From contig JBHGBE010000001.1 of assembly GCA_041946855.1 (NCBI GenBank), positions 69,346 through 133,345 of the forward strand: DNA of 64,000 bases. The letters run 5' to 3'. Source of the DNA: Phycisphaerae bacterium (lineage in GTDB: Bacteria > Planctomycetota > Phycisphaerae > SM23-33). This document shows positions 1 through 62,974 of this stretch, one piece after another (position 1 is the first letter of the stretch; each line of letters starts with the position of its first letter). Below the pieces are notes generated by a model that ran no database searches, was not told the DNA's origin, and saw only the letters and a program-made list of their open reading frames with translations. The translations under genes were made by a program, and so were the position numbers.

Positions 1-119
1 AAGGCAGGATTGCCGCGTCAGGCCCGGCCGGCGAAATCCTCGGCGACGTGGGATTGCTGGCCGGCCACGGCCTCGCATGAGCCATGACCGGCCGTGGCGC
101 GCATCGCGGGGCCGCTCGC

Positions 120-1208
120 TCAGCTTACCTCGACCAGCTTGTACTCAGGCTGCCCCAGCCCGACCTTGCGGCACTCGTCGATCTGGATGTACGGGTCCTT
201 GCCGTGAATCTGCTGGAACAGGTGTCCCTTGCCGCTGCGGTTGAGCGGCGACGGCAGTGAGCCTTCGATGTAGTTCTCGGCCTTGATGAGGTCCAGCGCG
301 GCCGTCTCGGTCGCCACGATGTCGTCGCCGGCCACGATGCCGATGTCGGGCACGAGGCTGGCCGTCGTGAACCCCCAGCAGTCGCAGAACGGCGTGATCT
401 GTAGCAGCGCCGTGATGAACAGCACCCGCCCCTTCTCGAAGCCCTTGAGCACCTCGCGCGTCGCCAGGGCCATGCCGTGCTGGAACCAGCGGTAACCGGA
501 CTGGTCGATGGTGATCGCGTGCCTCGGGCAGGAAAGCTGGCAGTGCATGCAGTACTTGCAGGCGTGGTCGGAGATGATGATCTTGCCGTCCTTGAACTCG
601 ATGGCCTCGTTGGGGCAGTTGTCCTTGCACATGAGGCAGCCGGTGCATTTGGACTTGTCCCACTCGAACGCGGCCGACATGAGGCGGTGGATCTTGCTCC
701 GCGTGCCGCCGTCGACGCAGCCCATCGCCAGGTTCTTGATCGCCCCGCCGAATCCGCTGTGGCCGTGGCCCTTGCCGTGCGAGAGGACGATCATCGCGCC
801 GGAATCGACGACCTCGCCGGCGACCTCCACCGTCTTCATCGTGCGGAAGTTGACCCGCCGCGACTGGACGTACTTGTCGCTGGCCCCCGCCACCGGCAGG
901 AGCTGGCAGCCGAGCGTCTCGGCCGTATAGCCGCGGTCCTTGGCGGAGGCGACCGCCCAGGGCGAGTCGGTGATGAACGGCCGGCCGCCGGCGTCCTTGA
1001 CCGCCTTGACCACCCGCGCCACCAGCAGCGGGTGGATCGTCGAGAACCCAAGCCCGCCGCCAAGATGCATCTTGATGGCGACGCGCTTGTCCTTGAACCG
1101 CTTCTTGAAGTCCCACTTGCCGAGCATCCGGTCGAGCATGGCCGGCAGCGTGGCGTCGGCCTTCAGGGCCTTGGGGCGGGCGGAAACGAACGTCACTCTC
1201 GCAGGCAT
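120..1208 (-). CDS. DUF362-family iron-sulfur protein with 2x[4Fe-4S] ferredoxin domain
   Basis: 362 aa; VAIKMHLG, HGKGH..GFGGAIKNLAMGC; CTGCLMCKDNCP and CKYCMHCQLSCP dicluster motifs. Confidence 0.85.
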   Translation of the reverse strand: MPARVTFVSARPKALKADATLPAMLDRMLGKWDFKKRFKDKRVAIKMHLGGGLGFSTIHPLLVARVVKAVKDAGGRPFITDSPWAVASAKDRGYTAETLGCQLLPVAGASDKYVQSRRVNFRTMKTVEVAGEVVDSGAMIVLSHGKGHGHSGFGGAIKNLAMGCVDGGTRSKIHRLMSAAFEWDKSKCTGCLMCKDNCPNEAIEFKDGKIIISDHACKYCMHCQLSCPRHAITIDQSGYRWFQHGMALATREVLKGFEKGRVLFITALLQITPFCDCWGFTTASLVPDIGIVAGDDIVATETAALDLIKAENYIEGSLPSPLNRSGKGHLFQQIHGKDPYIQIDECRKVGLGQPEYKLVEVS

Positions 1209-24085: not shown

Positions 24086-25744
24086 ATGGCGATATTGACC
24101 GACTATCTTGAGCCGCGGACGCTCCAGCAGATGCAGGATGCGTTCGCGGCCGTGACGAACCTGCCCATTCGGTATTGCCGGCCCGACGGCAAGCCGCTGA
24201 CCAGGCCGTCGAGCGTCTCGGCCGGACTCTTCCGGAAGGACTCCGGCAGGTCCGAGGCCGCACACAAGACCGCCAAGCCCGCCGCGGCGATCAAGCCCGT
24301 CCGCTACGACGTGCCGATCGTGATGGCAGAGGAGGTCGTCGGCCGGATCATCCTGGAGACCGCCGACCCTCAAATGGACGTCGCCGGCCCGCGCGGCACG
24401 GAGGAAAAGTCCACGCGGATGCTCAGGCTCCTGGGCCTGATGGCCGGCATGATCTCCCGCCTGTGCGACCGCGAGAAGCAGCTCCGCGCCCGCGTGGACC
24501 AGTTGGCGGCCCTGTACAAGCTGACGGCCGAGTTCACCAGCCGCCGCGACCTCTATGGCGAAAAGAGCCTGCTGAACCTGGTCGCCGCCACGGTGGTAGA
24601 CGTGCTCAAGGCCAAGGCCTGCTCCATCCGCCTGCTGAGCGACGACCACAAGGAGCTGGTCATAAAGGCCGTCGCCAACCTATCGCCGGAGTACCTGAAC
24701 AAGGGGCCGATCCTCGTCTCGCGGAGCCTGATCGACAAAGAGGTGCTCGAGACGCTCAAGCCGGTGTACATCGCCGACGAGCGCAACGACCCGCGCGTGC
24801 TGTATCCGGCCGAGGCCAGGCGCGAGGGCATCGTCAGCGGCCTGGTCGCGCCGCTTATGTACAAGGGCCATCCAGAGGGCGTCATCCGCGTCTACATGGG
24901 GCGGAAATACAAGTTCGACTGGTTCGAGTCGTCGCTGCTGCTGGCAATTGCCGGCGAGGCGGCGGCCGCCATCGTCAACGCCCGCCTCTACGAGGAGGCG
25001 GTACACTCGGCCCACATGCGGCGGGCGCTCCAGACGGCCGCGGAAGTCCAGCGGAGGATGATCCCCTCGGCGCCGCCGTCCGTGCCGGGCTTCGAGATCG
25101 GCGCGCTCTACGTGCCCAGCTACGAGCTCGGCGGCGACTTCTACGACTTCATCCCCCTGCCGCCGGACAACGTGGGCATCGCGGTCTGCGACGTGGTGGG
25201 CAAGGGCGTGAGGGCGTCGCTGCTGATGGCCTCCATCCGCGCGTCGCTGCGGGCGCACGCGGCCAGCATCTACCAGATGTCGGAGGTGATGGCACGCGTC
25301 AACCGCGACCTGTGCGAGGACGTGCTGACCAGCGACTTCGCGACGCTCTTCTACGCCGTGCTCGACTACAAGACCCGGCGCTTCACCTACTGCAACGCGG
25401 GGCACCCGCAGCCGCTGCTGTTCCGGCCGGGACAGGCGCCGGTGAGCCTGTCGCTGGGCGGGCTCGTGATCGGCGTCGATTCGCAGGCGCGATATGACTG
25501 CGAGTCGTTCATCCTCGGCCCCGGCGACGTGGTCCTGGCGTACACGGACGGCATAGTCGAGGCGGCGAACTTCGCGGAGGAGCCGTTCGGCCGCAAGCGC
25601 CTTGAGACGGCCGCCACCGCCGCCATCCAGAAGGGCCAGTCCGCCGAGGCCCTCCTGCGGCACGTGCTCTGGGAGATGCGCCGCTTCGCCGGTCTGGGAA
25701 CTCGATTTGATGACTTGACTTTGCTGGCGATTCGGGTTCTATAG
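24086..25744 (+). CDS. PocR-like/GAF/SpoIIE (RsbU-type) PP2C phosphatase
   Basis: LQQMQDAFAAVT (PocR-like), GAF, GGDFYDF, DVVGKG, NAGHP, YTDG, DDLTLL. Confidence 0.88.
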   Translation: MAILTDYLEPRTLQQMQDAFAAVTNLPIRYCRPDGKPLTRPSSVSAGLFRKDSGRSEAAHKTAKPAAAIKPVRYDVPIVMAEEVVGRIILETADPQMDVAGPRGTEEKSTRMLRLLGLMAGMISRLCDREKQLRARVDQLAALYKLTAEFTSRRDLYGEKSLLNLVAATVVDVLKAKACSIRLLSDDHKELVIKAVANLSPEYLNKGPILVSRSLIDKEVLETLKPVYIADERNDPRVLYPAEARREGIVSGLVAPLMYKGHPEGVIRVYMGRKYKFDWFESSLLLAIAGEAAAAIVNARLYEEAVHSAHMRRALQTAAEVQRRMIPSAPPSVPGFEIGALYVPSYELGGDFYDFIPLPPDNVGIAVCDVVGKGVRASLLMASIRASLRAHAASIYQMSEVMARVNRDLCEDVLTSDFATLFYAVLDYKTRRFTYCNAGHPQPLLFRPGQAPVSLSLGGLVIGVDSQARYDCESFILGPGDVVLAYTDGIVEAANFAEEPFGRKRLETAATAAIQKGQSAEALLRHVLWEMRRFAGLGTRFDDLTLLAIRVL

Positions 25745-25767
25745 AGGGGCCATATTATGGAAGGAAC

Positions 25768-56402: not shown

Positions 56403-56747
56403 GCTCGACGGCGGCACGTCTGGCGCCGGCAGTCGCGACCGGCGCTCGCCTGCCCGTCCCGCTCCTGCCAGCCCTCCAAGCCGCGCATTATCCGGTGGAA
56501 CAATCCTTCTGCAAGCCCTTTCCCGGCCTGGCGGCATTTCCCCCGACCTGACTGGCGGCAGGTCCCTGACCTGCCGCTCCCGTCGCCCGTTCTTGCTCCG
56601 CGTGCAGGCGGATAACGACGAGCCGCTTGTGGCGAACCGGCGGCACGCTCTACAATCCGGGTCAGTTTTGCGCGCTGGCGGCCGCCGGTATGCTTGGCCT
56701 GTTCGGCGCGACATTGTCGGCGATACAGCTACCGGCTCAAAGCGCGC

Positions 56748-56775
56748 TTGACAGCGGCGGCGCTCAGGCTATCCT
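56748..56775 (+). promoter_or_regulatory. Possible sigma70 promoter of mod
   Basis: TTGACA-16 bp-TATCCT. Confidence 0.45.
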
Positions 56776-56834
56776 TGTTGCCGCGGCAGGGCGGGATTCG
56801 GCTGACCGCCAGGACGCATTCACCACACGGAGCC

Positions 56835-58460
56835 ATGGCGACGAGAAACTACGGAGACCTGAGCAAGGATGAACTAGTCCGCCTCCTGGAGGCCCGCGAC
56901 CGGCGCGAGGCGACGCGCTTCGGCCTTGTCTGGGAGGCCAACGAGATCGAGCGAGACAAGGCGCTGAACAAGGACTTCGTCGCCCTCGAACTGGACCGCC
57001 CGCTGTGCTGTGGAGCGGGGCCGTGGCGCAACCTGATCATCGAGGGCGACAACTTCGACGCCCTCCGCTACCTCCGCATGACGTTCGCCGGCCGGGTCAA
57101 GTGCATCTACATCGACCCGCCCTACAACACCGGAAACAGGGACTTCATCTACAACGACCGCTTCGTCGACAAGGAAGATCTCTGGCGACACTCCAAATGG
57201 TGCGAGTTCATGTACCAGCGGCTCACCCTGGCCAAGGACTTGCTGCGACAGGACGGTATCATCTTCATCTCCATTGACGACAACGAGGCATTTCATCTCG
57301 GCCTATTGATGAACCGGATTTTCGGCGAAGGGAACTTTCTCGCATCAATTGCGTGGGAGAAGCGGTACACACGAAGCAACAACGCGAAGCTCTTCTACTC
57401 GGTGAAGGACACCGTACTCGCCTATAGGAACAGCCCTCTGGTGGCGTTTTTGCGAGAACAGCGAACAGAGAAGTCGGACGCGATCTACAAGAATCCCGAC
57501 AATGATCCTCGGGGTGTCTGGACCAGCGCATCTTATGTGAATCCGGCAACCAAACAGCAGAGACCGAATCTGGTTTACCCAATTCTGAACCCGCACACCG
57601 GCAAGACCGTAACTCACCCAACGCACGCATGGAAGTTTGAGCGCGAGAGTCACGAGCAGCACGTCAAAGACGGGCTGTTGTGGTGGGGCAGGGATGGCAA
57701 AGCGAAGTACCCACGTCTGAAGGTCTTTCCAAAGACGGAGAATGGCGGGCTTGTTCCGCTGGATATCTGGAAGCATGAGGACACTGGCACAACGGACGAG
57801 GGCGGGCAGGAGCTGAAAACCATTTTCGGTCACGCGGCGTTCACGAATCCCAAGCCAACCCGCCTGATCGAACGGATGCTCAGGCTATGCACTGGGCCAA
57901 ACGACTTGGTTCTCGACTTCTTCGCCGGCAGCGGGACGACGGCGCACGCCGTCCACAAGCTGAACAAGGAGGACGGCGGGAATCGCCGCGTCATCCTCGT
58001 TTCCAGCACGGAGGCCACGGAGGATGAACCCGAAAAGAACCTCTGCCGCGACGTGTGCGCAACGCGCGTCCGCCGCGTGATCGAGGGATATGGCGATACG
58101 CCGGGGCTTGGCGGCGACTTCGCTTACTTGCGCTGCCGGCGGATCGACCCCGGCCGTCTGACGGAGATCGACCACGCGCAGGTCTGGACCGCGCTTCAGT
58201 TGATCCACTGCGATGCCCTGGCCGAGTACAAGCCCGCGGCGTTGCTGACGGTCGGCGATGACGAACAGTTGCTTGTCTACTTGCCGCGCCTTGGCCGGGC
58301 CGTCGCGCCGGCCCTTAGGAAGGCGGTCCGGAGTGCGCGGGCGGCGATCGTCTATTCCTGGCAGCCGGAGCTGGCCCGCCAGTTCCTTCGCGGCCATGAG
58401 CAGGTCCAGATCGAGGCCGTGCCCGAGGTCCTGGCCCGGCGATTCGGAATGAAAGTTTAG
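56835..58460 (+). CDS. mod: Type III R-M DNA methyltransferase (Mod)
   Basis: IEGDNFDAL, YIDPPYNTG, ISIDDNE, central TRD, NPKPTRLI, LDFFAGSGTTAHAV (beta-class order). Confidence 0.9.
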   Translation: MATRNYGDLSKDELVRLLEARDRREATRFGLVWEANEIERDKALNKDFVALELDRPLCCGAGPWRNLIIEGDNFDALRYLRMTFAGRVKCIYIDPPYNTGNRDFIYNDRFVDKEDLWRHSKWCEFMYQRLTLAKDLLRQDGIIFISIDDNEAFHLGLLMNRIFGEGNFLASIAWEKRYTRSNNAKLFYSVKDTVLAYRNSPLVAFLREQRTEKSDAIYKNPDNDPRGVWTSASYVNPATKQQRPNLVYPILNPHTGKTVTHPTHAWKFERESHEQHVKDGLLWWGRDGKAKYPRLKVFPKTENGGLVPLDIWKHEDTGTTDEGGQELKTIFGHAAFTNPKPTRLIERMLRLCTGPNDLVLDFFAGSGTTAHAVHKLNKEDGGNRRVILVSSTEATEDEPEKNLCRDVCATRVRRVIEGYGDTPGLGGDFAYLRCRRIDPGRLTEIDHAQVWTALQLIHCDALAEYKPAALLTVGDDEQLLVYLPRLGRAVAPALRKAVRSARAAIVYSWQPELARQFLRGHEQVQIEAVPEVLARRFGMKV

Positions 58461-58463
58461 CAC

Positions 58464-58575
58464 CGTAGGTGCGTCTTGGATGCGGTGCGCCCAAGGCGCC
58501 CCTCCGGGGCTTTTTCGGCGTAGAGGCCGGTATTCCCCTGGGTGCCCCCAGGGGCTGGACAAGACGCCGCTTACG
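58464..58575. repeat. GTAG-type REP/REPIN-like composite between mod and res
   Basis: CGTAGGTGCGTCTTG ... CAAGACGCCGCTTACG outer imperfect IR; inner GCCCCTCCGGGGC and CCCCTGGG/CCCAGGGG hairpins. Confidence 0.55.
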
Positions 58576-58607
58576 CGGCTGGACATGATGAAGGCGAGCA
58601 GCCTCCT

Positions 58608-61028
58608 ATGGCCATCAAGACCCTAAAGGCGTTTCAGTCGGCCGCTATCGATAGCGCGATGGCGGTCTTCGGCTACGCCAAGGAGATGCTTGACGCGGCC
58701 GGCGGCGACGCGGCCGGGCGGGCGGCGGCCATCCACGACAACGGCTACCTCCTGATAGAGGCCCCGACCGGCTCGGGCAAGACTCTCATGGCCGGCCACA
58801 TCGTCGAGCGGATGTCGGCGCTTGACCAGGTGGTGTGGTTCTGGTTCGCCCCGTTCAAGGGCGTGGTGGACCAGACGGCCGCGGCGCTGCGCGAGCAGTT
58901 CGCGGGGCTGCGGCTGCGGACGCTGGCTGAGGATCGCGCACCGGAGGGAACGCGCGCCGGCGACGTGTTCGTGACTACCTGGCAGCTCGTGGCCACGCGG
59001 GTCAAGGACCGCCGCAGCGTCCGCAAGACCGGCGAGACCAACCCCAGCGTGGACGAGATGGCGGCGGCCCTGCGGGCGCAGGGCCTGCGTATCGGCGTTG
59101 TCGTCGATGAGGCGCACCATGGCTTCCACGGCGAGACCCAGGCCGCGGATTTCTTCCGGGGCGTACTGGCCCCGGAGTACACGATCCTTGTGACGGCCAC
59201 GCCCGACGACGCGGACCTTGCCGACCTCGAGCGAAGGATGCAGGCGGGGCGAGTCCAGCGGATAAGCGTGAGCCGGGCCGACGCGGTCTCGGCCGGGCTC
59301 ATCAAGGACGGCATCAAGTGCGTCTCCTGGCAGGCCGAGCCGGGTAGCGCGGCCCTTATCGACTTCGAGGCCACCGCCCTTCGCGAAGGCGCGGCACTTC
59401 ACCAACTGCTCAAGGCCGAATTGGCGCGGGCGGGCGTGTCGCTTGTTCCGCTGATGCTGGTGCAGGTGGATTCCACAGACAGAAGCGTCGAGCGGGCCAG
59501 GGAGCGATTGCTCGCCCTGGGATTTCGCGAAGCGCAGATTGCGGTCCACACGGCCGACGAGCCGGACGCGGGCCTGCTGGCCCTGGCCAACGACGAGACG
59601 CGCGAGGTGCTGGTGTTCAAGATGGCGGTGGCGCTGGGGTTCGACGCGCCGCGGGCTTGGACGCTTGTCTCGATGCGGGCCGCCCGCGACGCCGACTTCG
59701 GCGTCCAGCTCGTGGGGCGGATACTGCGGGTCCACCGGCGATTGCAGGGCCGGGCCGTCCCGGAGGCGCTGAAGTTCGGCTATGTGCTGCTGGCGGATGC
59801 GGAGGCGCAGACCGGGATCGACGCGGCCGGGCAGCGGATCAACGCCCTGCACACCGAGTACGCCAGACTCACACGGACGACGGTAGTGGTGCGGGTCGGC
59901 AACTTGGATACCGTGCAAGTGCTCGGCGCCGACGGGCAGGCGAGTTTCTGGCCGGTGCCGCCGGAAGGGGCGATATGGACGCCACCGCCCGCCGAGGCCG
60001 TGCCGTCGCCCGCCGCCGGCCTGTTCCCGCCGGCCGTGGCGACGGCACCGGGAGTTGCCCCGCCGTGGATCATTGCCGTGCCCGGCGGGCGGGCCCCCAG
60101 GTTCTCCTATCCGCTCCGGAGCGATGTGCCCCGCCGCTTCAAGACCCAGGATCTGCCCGAGGAATTCGACGTCACCGAGGAAGACTGCGCCGCGCGGTTC
60201 GTGCTATCGGCCGAGACGCTCCTTGACGTGCTGCTCAAGCACGACAAGGTGAAGGTCAGTAAGCGGACGATTGAGATATTCACGCAGGCGATTCAGATGG
60301 AGCTGGCATTCGCGCTGCCCTCGCCTGAGCAGATGCGGCACCTTGCCCAGCGGGCGCTGCTCAGGGGCGGCGTATTCGACCCCAAGGCCTTGCGCGCCGC
60401 CTTGCTCACGCGTCTGCACACGGTGCTGATCGAGAAGGGCGTGGAGGATTCCGACGACCCCAACACGTTAAACGAGTACCTGGACGTCCTGCTGGCGACG
60501 CATGGGGAACTGCTGTCCGAGGCCCAGCGGGCCGCCTTGGTCAGGGCGGCGGTTATCCAGGAGGCCGAGCCCCTCCCGGCGGAATTGGCGGCCGAAGCGC
60601 CATTGCCGCCATCGGCGCGAAATGTGTACCGCGCCGTCCCGCCGGACCTGAATAGCTGGGAGCGGGAGTTCGGCGAGTTGCTGGACCGCGACACGACCGG
60701 CACGGTCCTTTGGTGGCACCGTAATCCCGTGAGCAAGCCGTGGTCAGTGCGGGTGCTGCTGGTGGATGGAAGGGGATTCTTCCCCGACTTCCTGGTTGGC
60801 ATACGCGAGCGCAAAACGGAAGACGGTGGCCTTCTGGCCGACACGAAATTCGCGTATGACACGAACCAGGAGATGCCCAAGATTCTCGCCGAACACGCCA
60901 GCTACGGGCGCGTGCTGATCCTGTCGAAGAACCAGAGCCACCAGTGGGCGATTGCCAGAATCGAGGACGGCAGCGGAAGACCGCTCCTGGGAAGGACGTT
61001 CAGCCTTTCGGATGCGGCCGCCTACTGA
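58608..61028 (+). CDS. res: Type III R-M restriction subunit (SF2 helicase with PD-(D/E)XK nuclease)
   Basis: APTGSGKT, DEAHH, TATP, QLVGRILR, FFPDFLV..ADTK. Confidence 0.82.
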   Translation: MAIKTLKAFQSAAIDSAMAVFGYAKEMLDAAGGDAAGRAAAIHDNGYLLIEAPTGSGKTLMAGHIVERMSALDQVVWFWFAPFKGVVDQTAAALREQFAGLRLRTLAEDRAPEGTRAGDVFVTTWQLVATRVKDRRSVRKTGETNPSVDEMAAALRAQGLRIGVVVDEAHHGFHGETQAADFFRGVLAPEYTILVTATPDDADLADLERRMQAGRVQRISVSRADAVSAGLIKDGIKCVSWQAEPGSAALIDFEATALREGAALHQLLKAELARAGVSLVPLMLVQVDSTDRSVERARERLLALGFREAQIAVHTADEPDAGLLALANDETREVLVFKMAVALGFDAPRAWTLVSMRAARDADFGVQLVGRILRVHRRLQGRAVPEALKFGYVLLADAEAQTGIDAAGQRINALHTEYARLTRTTVVVRVGNLDTVQVLGADGQASFWPVPPEGAIWTPPPAEAVPSPAAGLFPPAVATAPGVAPPWIIAVPGGRAPRFSYPLRSDVPRRFKTQDLPEEFDVTEEDCAARFVLSAETLLDVLLKHDKVKVSKRTIEIFTQAIQMELAFALPSPEQMRHLAQRALLRGGVFDPKALRAALLTRLHTVLIEKGVEDSDDPNTLNEYLDVLLATHGELLSEAQRAALVRAAVIQEAEPLPAELAAEAPLPPSARNVYRAVPPDLNSWEREFGELLDRDTTGTVLWWHRNPVSKPWSVRVLLVDGRGFFPDFLVGIRERKTEDGGLLADTKFAYDTNQEMPKILAEHASYGRVLILSKNQSHQWAIARIEDGSGRPLLGRTFSLSDAAAY

Positions 61029-61560
61029 GTGCTGCCCAGAGCGAAGTGCATGCACCACGCGGGTGAGCCTCTTAACCGCCCTGACGATGCGCCCCCCACG
61101 GATCGACGCCTCGGCCCGCTGCACTGACGCCGGCCGGACAAGCTCCATCGCCACGCGATACTGATCATCACGCTTGGAGAGGATTCTCAACTCTCCAATC
61201 CCTAATCCGAGTCCGGCCTCCACGGTCCGCTGTCCCGGCCGTGCGGCTCGTAACGTGCTCGTAAATTGCACAAACTGGATAATCCAGGCAAAGGTAAAAG
61301 GCGTTGACAAGAGAGTATGCGAAGGCTACGCAGCATGGGCAATGTGTTAGTCTGGGGGATTTAGCCCTTTCGCGCTTGTGATGTAGCATCAGTATTGACA
61401 ATATGTTAGGTACGATTCCCGGATCGCCCGAGACCGCCCCGCGCCAATAGACGTCGTTTTGCAGAACAAACCCATTTTTCACAAATCCGCTCGCCCGCCT
61501 GCCGCCGAACCAGCTCCCGGCAGCGGCCCCGACGGGCATGAATGTCCCGCGCCGCCCGCT

Positions 61561-61602
61561 CCCTACTCCCCACACCCTACTCCCCACACCCTACTCCCCA
61601 CA
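61561..61602 (+). repeat. Tandem 14-mer (CCCTACTCCCCACA)x3
   Basis: Three exact copies. Confidence 0.9.
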
Positions 61603-61743
61603 TCCAACTCCTCACACCAGGCGCCCCTACAGAAATGCCATGGGTCTCTCAGTTTCTCCGTGTTGTAACCTAGTTCTATCATCAGCATCCGCAATATCTT
61701 AAAGCGGCAAGCCCGAGAATCACGAGAAAGCCCCGGAATTTTA

Positions 61744-61779
61744 TTGACGGTTTCCGTTCGTACCTGATATAATACGAAC
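61744..61779 (+). promoter_or_regulatory. Strong sigma70 promoter with overlapping palindrome
   Basis: TTGACG-18 bp-TATAAT with extended TG; GTTCGTA-N10-TACGAAC at 61756-61779. Confidence 0.65.
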
Positions 61780-62182
61780 AATGTTGGGCCTCCGCACTGT
61801 GCCGGCCCACGGCAGGAGCGTGCTGGGAATGCGGATACGCAGGATGATCACGACTCAACCACGCAGGGTCTTGTCTGCGCCGCGGCCGGTTTGGGGCCCA
61901 CTTGACGCCGCGGAGCGAGGGTCAAGATTACCAAACGAAGCCAAAGTTGCCGGAAATCAACATCAACCTGCCAACGGCCAGGCCCGTGGAAAGGAAAATT
62001 CCGGAACGAACCCGAACTTATATGCGGCTGGGTAATCTGGGTAAACCCGAACCCCACGATCGCGGCCTTCGGGGTAGCGGCCAATCCCATGTGAAACACC
62101 GGCCGCTGAACGCTGAACCAAAGAGGTCGTTTTGCAGCACGAATCCAATTTTCGCAACTCGCCGGGCCTCGGCGCCGCCGGT

Positions 62183-62974
62183 TCAGCCGGCCTGGAGCTC
62201 CTTCTGCCGGCTGTCGAGCTGGCGGTGGAGGCGCTCCAGGATGGCCGAGTGCATCTGGCTGACGCGGCTCTCGGACAGGGCCAGCGTCTCGCCGATCTCC
62301 TTCATGGTCATCTCCTCGAAGTAGTACAGGAGTATGATCAGCCGCTCGGCGCGGCTCAGGCCGCGAGTGACAAGCTCCTTCACGTCGCGCCTCTGGGCGG
62401 CGCGGAACGGGTCGTCCGAGCGCTTGTCCTCCAGCACGTCGATCTCGCGGACGTCCTTGTGCGAGTCGGTCTCGTACCACTTGCGGTTGAGCGAGACGAC
62501 GCCGGTGGCGTGGGCGTCGCGCTTGAGCTTGTGGAACTCCTTCATCGGCAGGCCCATCTCCGCGGCAAGCTCCTTCTCGTTGGGCTTGCGGCCGAGGTGC
62601 GCCTCCAGCATCCGCATCGCCTCGCTGAGCTTGTGGGCCCGGCTGCGGACCAGGCGCGGGACCCAGTCCATCGATCGCAACTCGTCGAGGATGGCCCCGC
62701 GTATCCGCGGCGCGCAGTAGGTCTCGAACTTGACGCCGCGCTGGTGGTCGAAGGCGTTTACCGCGTCCATGAGGCCGAAGATGCCGGCGGACATCAGGTC
62801 GTCGACCTCGACCTCATCAGGCAGCTTGGTGTGAAGCCGCTCGGCCGTGTACTTGACGATGGGAAGATAGTGCTCGAGCAACTGGTTCCTGGCCGCCTCG
62901 CTCCTGGTGCGGCGAAACTCCTTCCACCACTGGGCGACCTGGTCGGATGGGGCCTTGGTCTGCGTTGCCTTCAT
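62183..62974 (-). CDS. fliA: RNA polymerase sigma-28 (FliA/WhiG)
   Basis: GIFGLMDAVNAFD..RGVKFETY..RIRGAILDELRSMDWVPR, TMKEIG..L.LSESRVSQMH. Confidence 0.95.
   Translation of the reverse strand: MKATQTKAPSDQVAQWWKEFRRTRSEAARNQLLEHYLPIVKYTAERLHTKLPDEVEVDDLMSAGIFGLMDAVNAFDHQRGVKFETYCAPRIRGAILDELRSMDWVPRLVRSRAHKLSEAMRMLEAHLGRKPNEKELAAEMGLPMKEFHKLKRDAHATGVVSLNRKWYETDSHKDVREIDVLEDKRSDDPFRAAQRRDVKELVTRGLSRAERLIILLYYFEEMTMKEIGETLALSESRVSQMHSAILERLHRQLDSRQKELQAG

Follow-up and report, generated by a model that had tools for sequence, protein, structure and literature searches.

Introduction

The closest described systems to the DNA considered here are interspersed repeats of other bacteria. The BOX elements of Streptococcus pneumoniae, composed of boxA, a variable boxB, and boxC, share with the RUP and SPRITE repeats a modular build in fixed order with variable internal modules, a restriction to species, and an over-representation between convergent genes; this bias has been read as the mark of tolerated parasitic insertions, which could in principle alter the expression of neighboring genes, and BOX is transcribed into a stable stem-loop (PMC3049150). 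REP sequences and BIMEs form mosaic extragenic clusters at the 3′ ends of genes, the REPs being imperfect palindromes in alternating orientation (PMC2817692, PMC3184786). Correia elements of Neisseria and promoter-bearing MITEs are small and non-coding, have terminal inverted repeats and target-site duplications, and can bring promoters beside resident genes (PMC10969869, PMC3184786).

The present study concerns a gene-free interval of 1.15 kb in a genome of 5.2 Mb (178 contigs, 65.6% GC), located on contig C1 within a window of 64,000 nt, by which we mean the whole stretch of DNA that was analyzed and to which all unprefixed positions refer. An original prediction had listed a near-consensus promoter, a palindrome, a short tandem tract, and two similar 32-mers in this interval and had proposed a repressed non-coding transcript, a binding-site array, or a decayed element at an island edge. 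As a whole this interpretation was partly supported. On balance, we favor the reading that the interval is a composite of lineage-specific interspersed repeats resembling BIMEs or BOX, one of which is an internally deleted, promoter-led unit.

Gene content and surroundings of the interval

The interval separates the stop codon of a ResIII/DEAD gene identified by Pfam (res, 58542-61028) from that of fliA, a sigma-70-family gene on the minus strand (62183-62974, stop codon 62183-62185) in which Pfam recognized regions 2, 3, and 4. Among the neighbors Pfam also recognized an N6/N4 methylase and, beside fliA, the gene of a MinD/ParA-like ATPase, and it classed res as a type III res/helicase. The absence of a gene between res and fliA, as originally stated, was confirmed: Pfam returned zero matches at E ≤ 1 for every ORF of the interval, and ARAGORN found neither a tRNA nor a tmRNA gene within it. 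The Rfam covariance models, a comparison that had been proposed with the original prediction, gave no credible match in the interval at E ≤ 10 and nothing at E ≤ 1 at five paralogous loci. A degraded known protein gene, one part of the outcome that would have told against that prediction, was looked for with Pfam and none was found; the reading frames belong to no Pfam family and are broken by indels between copies of the repeats.

Co-directional dapF lies within 600 nt after fliA in six of the ten closest relatives and at 15 of 58 loci overall. Here the genome’s own dapF is on another contig (C102:88550-89500), and in its place a type III mod/res pair (56694-61028) faces fliA. The mod gene has 53-57% GC (57000-57800) against the genome average of 65.6%, and the pair was probably acquired. 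Since dapF is elsewhere and the mod/res pair is of low GC, the repeats described below sit at a synteny break beside a restriction-modification pair. The break fits the suggestion of an island edge, although the repeats are not themselves island-specific.

The lower-GC restriction-modification pair and the lost fliA-dapF adjacency are consistent with the interval being a decayed protein gene or the remnant of a mobile element (for example a prophage or IS) carried by an island, as is the first repeat after res, R0, one frame of which has a stop in the window and forms part of an RHS-like ORF on C168. Against this, no frame has a Pfam match, there is no likeness to phage or plasmid records, and every segment has many copies at unrelated loci that are accompanied by no protein gene, so that we regard this explanation as highly improbable.

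Repeat elements of the interval

A blastn comparison of positions 60900-62300 with the whole genome showed that most of the interval is repeated elsewhere, the repeated segments being 61082-61172 (R0, four other copies), 61236-61490 (class A), 61548-61627 (heptamer array), 61648-61829 together with 61871-62050 (class C), and 62118-62163 (the second 32-mer). The interval is certainly of repeat nature. The features originally noted are all far above chance and none is unique to the locus; what had been overlooked is that every feature of the interval belongs to a lineage-specific family of repeats with copies throughout the genome and that the arrangement is not specific to fliA.

R0 (61082..61172, plus strand) is a GC-rich dispersed repeat of ~90 nt with blastn copies on C109, C168, C17, and C126 at 80-86% identity and no Pfam match, and its frames vary between copies. 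A 25-codon frame within it (61087-61164, plus strand; M-x-P-x-R-I-D-A...S-S-I-A-T-R-Y/S) is open in the window, on C109, and on C17, and the C168 copy reads through its stop; read in the other frame, the R0 DNA on C168 encodes the C-terminus of an RHS/YD-like ORF of 168 aa.

Downstream of R0 lies an AT-rich element of ~250-290 nt, class A (61205..61492, plus strand), that ends in a module designated M8 and was delimited with nhmmer, which found 12 full copies in the genome (E 1e-37 to 1e-65). Class A carries the palindrome TGTAAC-N7-GTTACA and the conserved blocks TGCGCAAG and TGTAACAT-N12-ATGTTA (window 61382-61409). In the class A alignment the M8 block is nearly invariant and the adjoining bases diverge, and RNAalifold gave no consensus fold on either strand. 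At C109:14530-17358, the duplicate of R0 plus class A adjoins a large gene like those of restriction-modification systems, with SAM-binding DPACGSGSFL and NPPY motifs.

M8 comprises a 32-mer and its upstream context. The two 32-mers of the window (61453-61484 and 62126-62157) are indeed 27/32 identical, and their joint IUPAC pattern has two matches in the window against 0.00 expected. They had been described as flanking the tandem tract and the promoter, but they do not bracket one unit. When the surroundings of all copies were aligned, M8 proved to be the 3′ end of longer elements, and the two 32-mers terminate two separate dispersed elements with 16-17 copies in the genome (16 within 9 mismatches in a fuzzy search of the 32-mer; 17 by nhmmer). 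The first copy (61453..61484, plus strand; box CAGAACAAACCCAT at 61462-61475) closes class A, and the second (62100..62162, plus strand) stops ~20 nt short of the fliA stop codon.

The tandem tract seen originally as a 14-mer is real: TRF reports a period of 14 nt with 4.1 copies (61561-61618), and TRF and blastn together delimit four units of the heptamer pair CCCTACT CCCCACA (61555..61624, plus strand). The tract belongs to a heptamer-repeat family with ~75 blastn matches genome-wide, yet it covers only ~70 nt of the interval; a similar array lies upstream of the class C copy on C121, and no inverted partner array is found near the window tract. The remaining units are class C (61645..62046, plus strand), which consists of an upstream module, the promoter module M3, a truncated core, and the modules M5 and M6, and, beyond it, a decayed parS-like site, TCCCATGTGAAACA (62085..62098, strand unspecified), followed by the second M8.

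Module census and arrangement

M5 (61921..61963, plus strand) holds the box CCAAACGAAGCCAA followed by AGTTGCCGGAAATCAACAT, and M6 (61994..62046, plus strand) holds the box CGGAACGAACCCGA followed by ACTTATATGCGGCTGGGTAATCTGGGTAAAC. M5, M6, and M8 have a common 5′ half (GG, a run of A4 or T4, then CNRAACRAASCC) and distinct tails (TTTTTCACAAATCC in M8, AGTTGCCGGAAATCAACAT in M5, and ACTTATATGCGACTGGGTAATCTGGGTAAAC in M6); they are diverged forms of one ancestral unit of ~45-60 nt around a non-palindromic A/C-rich box. This box, CNRAACRAASCCRW, matches the genome 53 times, whereas its reversed control has no match; M5, M6, or M8 modules contain 52 of these sites. Because the box matches fall in modules, the shorter repeat cores that had been reported at 61927 and 61999, and are present as stated, can be identified as M5 and M6. 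The genome scan suggested at the time was also informative, the earlier pattern TTNCNRAACRAANCCNA having 18 matches against 0 for its reversed control, and the contention that the motif acts at the level of nucleic acid stands, since the modules that contain it are non-coding and its frame differs from one occurrence to another.

By nhmmer the genome holds 18 copies of M5 and 27 of M6, and M3 and the core of ~300 nt have 6 copies each. Over 40 loci the order of modules is invariant and confined to a single strand: M3, core, M5 (once or twice), M6. The arrangement is M3-core-M5-M6 on C133, on C101, and in the window, and M3-core-M5-M5-M6 on C113 and C121. M6 is always the last module of its unit and has a sharp 3′ boundary; M5-M6 and M6 are also found alone, class A may precede or follow M6, and M6, a variable hairpin, parS, and M8 succeed one another on C129, on C168, and in the window. 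The modules thus combine in fixed order and orientation, as in BIMEs or BOX.

Modules contain at least eight contig ends (C14, C152, C119, C178, C99, C93, C30, and C131), from which it follows that some copies are near-identical and that the counts are minimum values. The family is among the main causes of breaks in the assembly. These eight contigs begin or stop inside M5, M6, or the core, several of them at the identical base. Indels of 1, 14, and 22 nt distinguish copies.

Several other readings of the modules were rejected. A small reverse-strand peptide at M8 (MGLFCKTT...) is alignable over just 8 codons, after which lengths and frames diverge, and a bidirectional terminator before M8, suggested by an A-tract/GC/T-tract consensus, was not supported by per-copy folding, the hairpins upstream of M8 being weak and in most copies no better than shuffles. 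The tRNA T-arm, dif, DnaA box, IHF, CRP, and Ter motifs were considered and none fits. Truncation at the 5′ end, as a sign of retroposition, does not apply, as short copies start at module boundaries and not at random points.

The class C unit and its promoter

The class C element of the window was aligned with five other copies (C113, C121, C133, C101, and C99), in which the unit measures ~640 nt and consists of the promoter, a GC-rich core of ~300 nt, M5 once or twice, and M6. The promoter unit of the window is an internally deleted copy of this ~640-nt element from at least five other loci, a relationship that had escaped the original prediction. The window core (61781..61921, plus strand) retains ~50 nt of the 5′ end (61781-61832) and ~50 nt of the 3′ end (61871-61921), joined by diverged filler (61833-61870), and has lost ~200-230 nt. 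The closest pair, C113/C121, is 93% identical over the unit of ~640 nt, from CGTTCCTC... to ...CTGGGTAATCTGGGTAAAC; the ends of these two copies (CGTTCCTC... and ...GGGTAAAC) have no terminal inverted repeat, and their flanks show neither a target-site duplication nor any direct duplication. No protein gene accompanies class C at any copy, and no terminator was found after M6. At C121:31955-35260, the C121 copy adjoins a large restriction-modification-like gene with an N-terminal nuclease-like IEVKS motif.

The near-consensus promoter of the original prediction corresponds to M3 (61735..61779, plus strand), which combines TTGACG (−35, 61744-61749), an 18-nt spacer, and TATAAT (−10, 61768-61773), i.e., 11 of 12 consensus matches, with a TG extension (61765-61766); transcription is predicted to start near 61780 on the plus strand. 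The palindrome GTTCGTA-N10-TACGAAC was likewise recovered, its arms (61756-61762 and 61773-61779) flanking the −10 element, and promoter and palindrome form a genuine pair that is conserved in six genome copies. The −35, TG, and −10 elements are retained in 6/6 M3 copies, as is the inverted repeat (GTA/TAC in the window, GCA/TGC on C121, and GC/GC in three others). With its left arm upstream of the predicted start, the palindrome fits a DNA operator and not an RNA hairpin made from M3, and to judge from its position relative to the promoter the inverted repeat is most simply a DNA feature, a putative operator. The promoter of the window, aimed at the 3′ end of fliA, is probably active. A leaderless ORF at 61781 was discarded because its ATG is missing from the other copies, and a sigma-54 promoter reading because the spacing is wrong.

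M3 accounts for 6 of the 14 TTGAC[AG]-N16-18-TATAAT sites in the 5.2-Mb genome. The other eight near-consensus sigma-70 promoters are at C95:38095, C94:46328, C133:30683, C170:4726, C152:3496, C124:52467, C103:40037, and C1:39548, and Rfam detected no known RNA in the 600-700 nt downstream of them.

Conservation and RNA folding

Conservation within class C is blockwise, mean pairwise identity among the copies being 0.92 in M5, 0.84 in M6, 0.83 in M3, 0.76 in the 5′ core, 0.64 in the linker, 0.61 in the rest of the core, and 0.37 just upstream of M3. Such a pattern suggests that the blocks are under selection, something a purely parasitic reading would not call for, and it keeps two functional readings alive, a multi-copy regulated non-coding RNA and a protein-binding array.

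The first holds that class C copies are multi-copy regulated non-coding RNA genes with a structured GC-rich body and single-stranded A/C-rich M5/M6 boxes that would bind a protein or RNAs (as a sponge or a seed), the window copy being a crippled paralogue. The near-consensus promoter with its operator-like inverted repeat in every copy, the absence of coding potential, and the position of M5 and M6 as the best-conserved parts (0.84-0.92), which are predicted to be unstructured, all speak for it. So do two small hairpins of the 5′ core, which are 92% paired over six copies with 2 compensatory pairs and 6 G·U cells, the latter compatible only with the promoter strand; this covariation is not significant, 85 of 500 shuffles reaching the observed value. 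Folding of the remainder is less favorable. The core alignment has equal fold energy on both strands, the fold of a single core is not better than that of shuffles on either strand (z = −1.6 for each), the putative transcript of the window has z = +0.3, and RNAalifold on M5-M6 gave no consensus fold beyond a 4-bp hairpin (energy about −7 to −10). This explanation must also contend with M5 and M6 being far commoner without a promoter or core, with the lack of a terminator after M6 and of homologues in the other genomes searched, and with the near-identical copies that break the assembly, which suggest recent copying and not old paralogues. We consider it unlikely. As the best-conserved parts are unstructured blocks, recognition by a protein, whether of DNA or of RNA, is favored over a structured RNA.

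parS sites, binding sites, and RAYT genes

Besides one site with a single mismatch, the genome holds six perfect 16-bp parS palindromes, TGTTCCACGTGGAACA. Two perfect sites (C129:1576-1591 and C168:29490-29505) lie inside units composed of M6, hairpin, parS, and M8, and four parS are clustered on C114:17877-18040 beside a partial M8. The site in the window is not a parS palindrome, as TCCCATGTGAAACA is without the left half, and the homologous positions on C129 and C168 hold the perfect TGTTCCACGTGGAACA.

These embedded sites are among the evidence for the second functional reading, in which the boxes of the modules, together with the GTTCG/CGAAC operator, would be arrayed at gene ends as double-stranded DNA binding sites for one or more proteins, for example a recombinase, a nucleoid or partition protein, or a regulator. 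Conserved blocks without RNA structure, the operator arm upstream of the start site, the CGAAC/GAAC words present in both operator and boxes, and the class A palindrome would suit such an array. The boxes, however, are non-palindromic and strictly on one strand within each locus, no candidate protein was found, restriction to a single lineage is unusual for a host regulatory system, and an ECF/AlgU-like promoter reading of M6 (GAACTT-N16-TCTGG) was abandoned when it gave no regulon outside the repeats. The array accordingly appears quite unlikely.

Candidates for a mobilizing enzyme were sought among the seven Y1_Tnp (IS200/RAYT-type) matches in the genome. RAYT-like genes with their own inverted hairpin flanks, a REPtron layout, are found at C106:~67-530 (minus strand), C95:39495-40242 (plus strand), and C95:~25060-25760 (minus strand), and the variable hairpins within the M6...M8 units of C129 and C168 come from one of the C95 hairpin families, the GGGACAGTCCC type. 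M5, M6, and M8 were not found at the borders of any RAYT gene. In the C106 RAYT gene, the stretch GGGGCGTCTTGGAGAACGAAC that separates the 5′ hairpin from the start codon resembles GGGTCGTYTTGCAGAACGAAC of M8 (nhmmer E = 0.026 in 25 kb); the hairpins around this gene are of another small family, the rest of which is without the box, and the resemblance is a lead, not a link.

Two further IS200-related observations were made. A truncated IS200 copy (C94:23058-23219) lies ~300 nt from an M6 module, and an ORF of ~1126 codons on C6 (around C6:2136-2345, minus strand) is valyl-tRNA-synthetase-like with an in-frame Y1_Tnp IS200/RAYT-like insert and has repeated peptides of the GTGILPVSPAGILPA type before the insert and near the C-terminus.

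Distribution across genomes and among intergenic gaps

The repeat family is confined to one Phycisphaerae lineage. BLAST searches of 92 genomes of the family returned nothing for class A or the core, and the M6 pattern, with up to 3 mismatches allowed, matched 19 times in its own genome and 0 times in 400 other genomes of the class. The exact M5 and M6 patterns were absent from 185,579 species genomes, the exact core motif from a metagenome contig collection, and exact M6 and M8 from IMG/VR, and neither plasmid nor phage records matched the full C113 class C copy. Metagenomic loci that encode FliA relatives (80 loci, 62-81% identity) were free of modules, and an exact-protein look-up of FliA returned no match.

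The modules accumulate between convergent genes. The 27 classifiable loci comprise 12 convergent, 12 tandem, and 3 divergent gaps, against a background of 363 convergent, 1680 tandem, and 368 divergent gaps (363/2411, or 15%, convergent), which amounts to a three-fold enrichment in convergent gaps (binomial p = 2.5e-4). An apparent aim of the elements at the stop codon of the opposed gene is mostly a consequence of the preference for convergent gaps; in tandem gaps their orientation is about 7 to 5.

Discussion

On the composite-repeat reading, the interval is not a single device but would have arisen by accretion of at least five repeat units in the non-essential space that separates res from fliA at their 3′ ends: R0; class A with its M8; the heptamer array; the deleted class C; and the M6-linked spacer with the decayed parS and the second M8. 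The units would have spread as DNA, by copy-and-paste or recombination, and persisted at sites where they are least harmful. Propagation as selfish or neutral DNA would be the mechanism with the best support, and the units may be mobile. M3 would be a working sigma-70 promoter under the control of a repressor, and in the window could drive a non-coding transcript of ~400 nt into the antisense strand of the 3′ end of fliA, which would be a by-product of the element and not a dedicated regulator of fliA. Against the composite-repeat reading stand the want of terminal inverted repeats or target duplications at the class C ends and of a mobilizing enzyme, for which the C106 RAYT is the sole lead, the blockwise conservation described above, and the weak RNA-level constraint on the promoter strand seen in the 2 compensatory pairs and 6 G·U cells.

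A more novel interpretation, which we hold to be very doubtful, is that class C is a new self-propagating or host-domesticated transcription unit in which an operator-controlled promoter drives a non-coding RNA and the boxes of M5, M6, and M8 are recognized by a protein. That protein might be a mobilizing enzyme with no need of hairpins or inverted repeats, or an RNA- or DNA-binding regulator. Were this true, the cell would use these units to set switchable promoters for antisense transcription against the 3′ ends of selected genes, including fliA.

For the composite-repeat reading, the consequences are of several kinds. The interval would be neither a dedicated control region of fliA nor a unique RNA gene but repeat DNA of a sort present at ~40 loci. 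The repeat family is undescribed, breaks the assembly at no fewer than eight contig ends, and supplies 6 of the 14 near-consensus promoters of the genome, and spurious ORFs of 60-200 codons overlap its modules in annotation. If the promoters fire, at least five genes, the flagellar sigma factor among them, would receive antisense transcription from a common and probably repressible source.

In comparison with known systems, the modules are most like BOX, RUP, and SPRITE (PMC3049150), with which they share the modular build in fixed order, variable internal modules (here M5 once or twice), a narrow distribution (species-restricted there, lineage-restricted here), the same convergent bias, and the potential to alter the expression of neighbors. 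Unlike BOX with its stable stem-loop, however, they are without a conserved fold and have a common non-palindromic A/C-rich box, and one member has a sigma-70 promoter, an operator-like repeat, and a ~300-nt core. As with REP/BIME (PMC2817692, PMC3184786), they form mosaic extragenic clusters at gene 3′ ends in a genome that holds RAYT-type genes, but whereas REPs, as imperfect palindromes, alternate in orientation, M5, M6, and M8 are not built on hairpins and keep to one direction per locus. With Correia elements and promoter-bearing MITEs (PMC10969869, PMC3184786), class C shares a small non-coding build that can bring a promoter beside resident genes, and it differs from them in having neither of their two hallmarks, terminal inverted repeats and target-site duplications.
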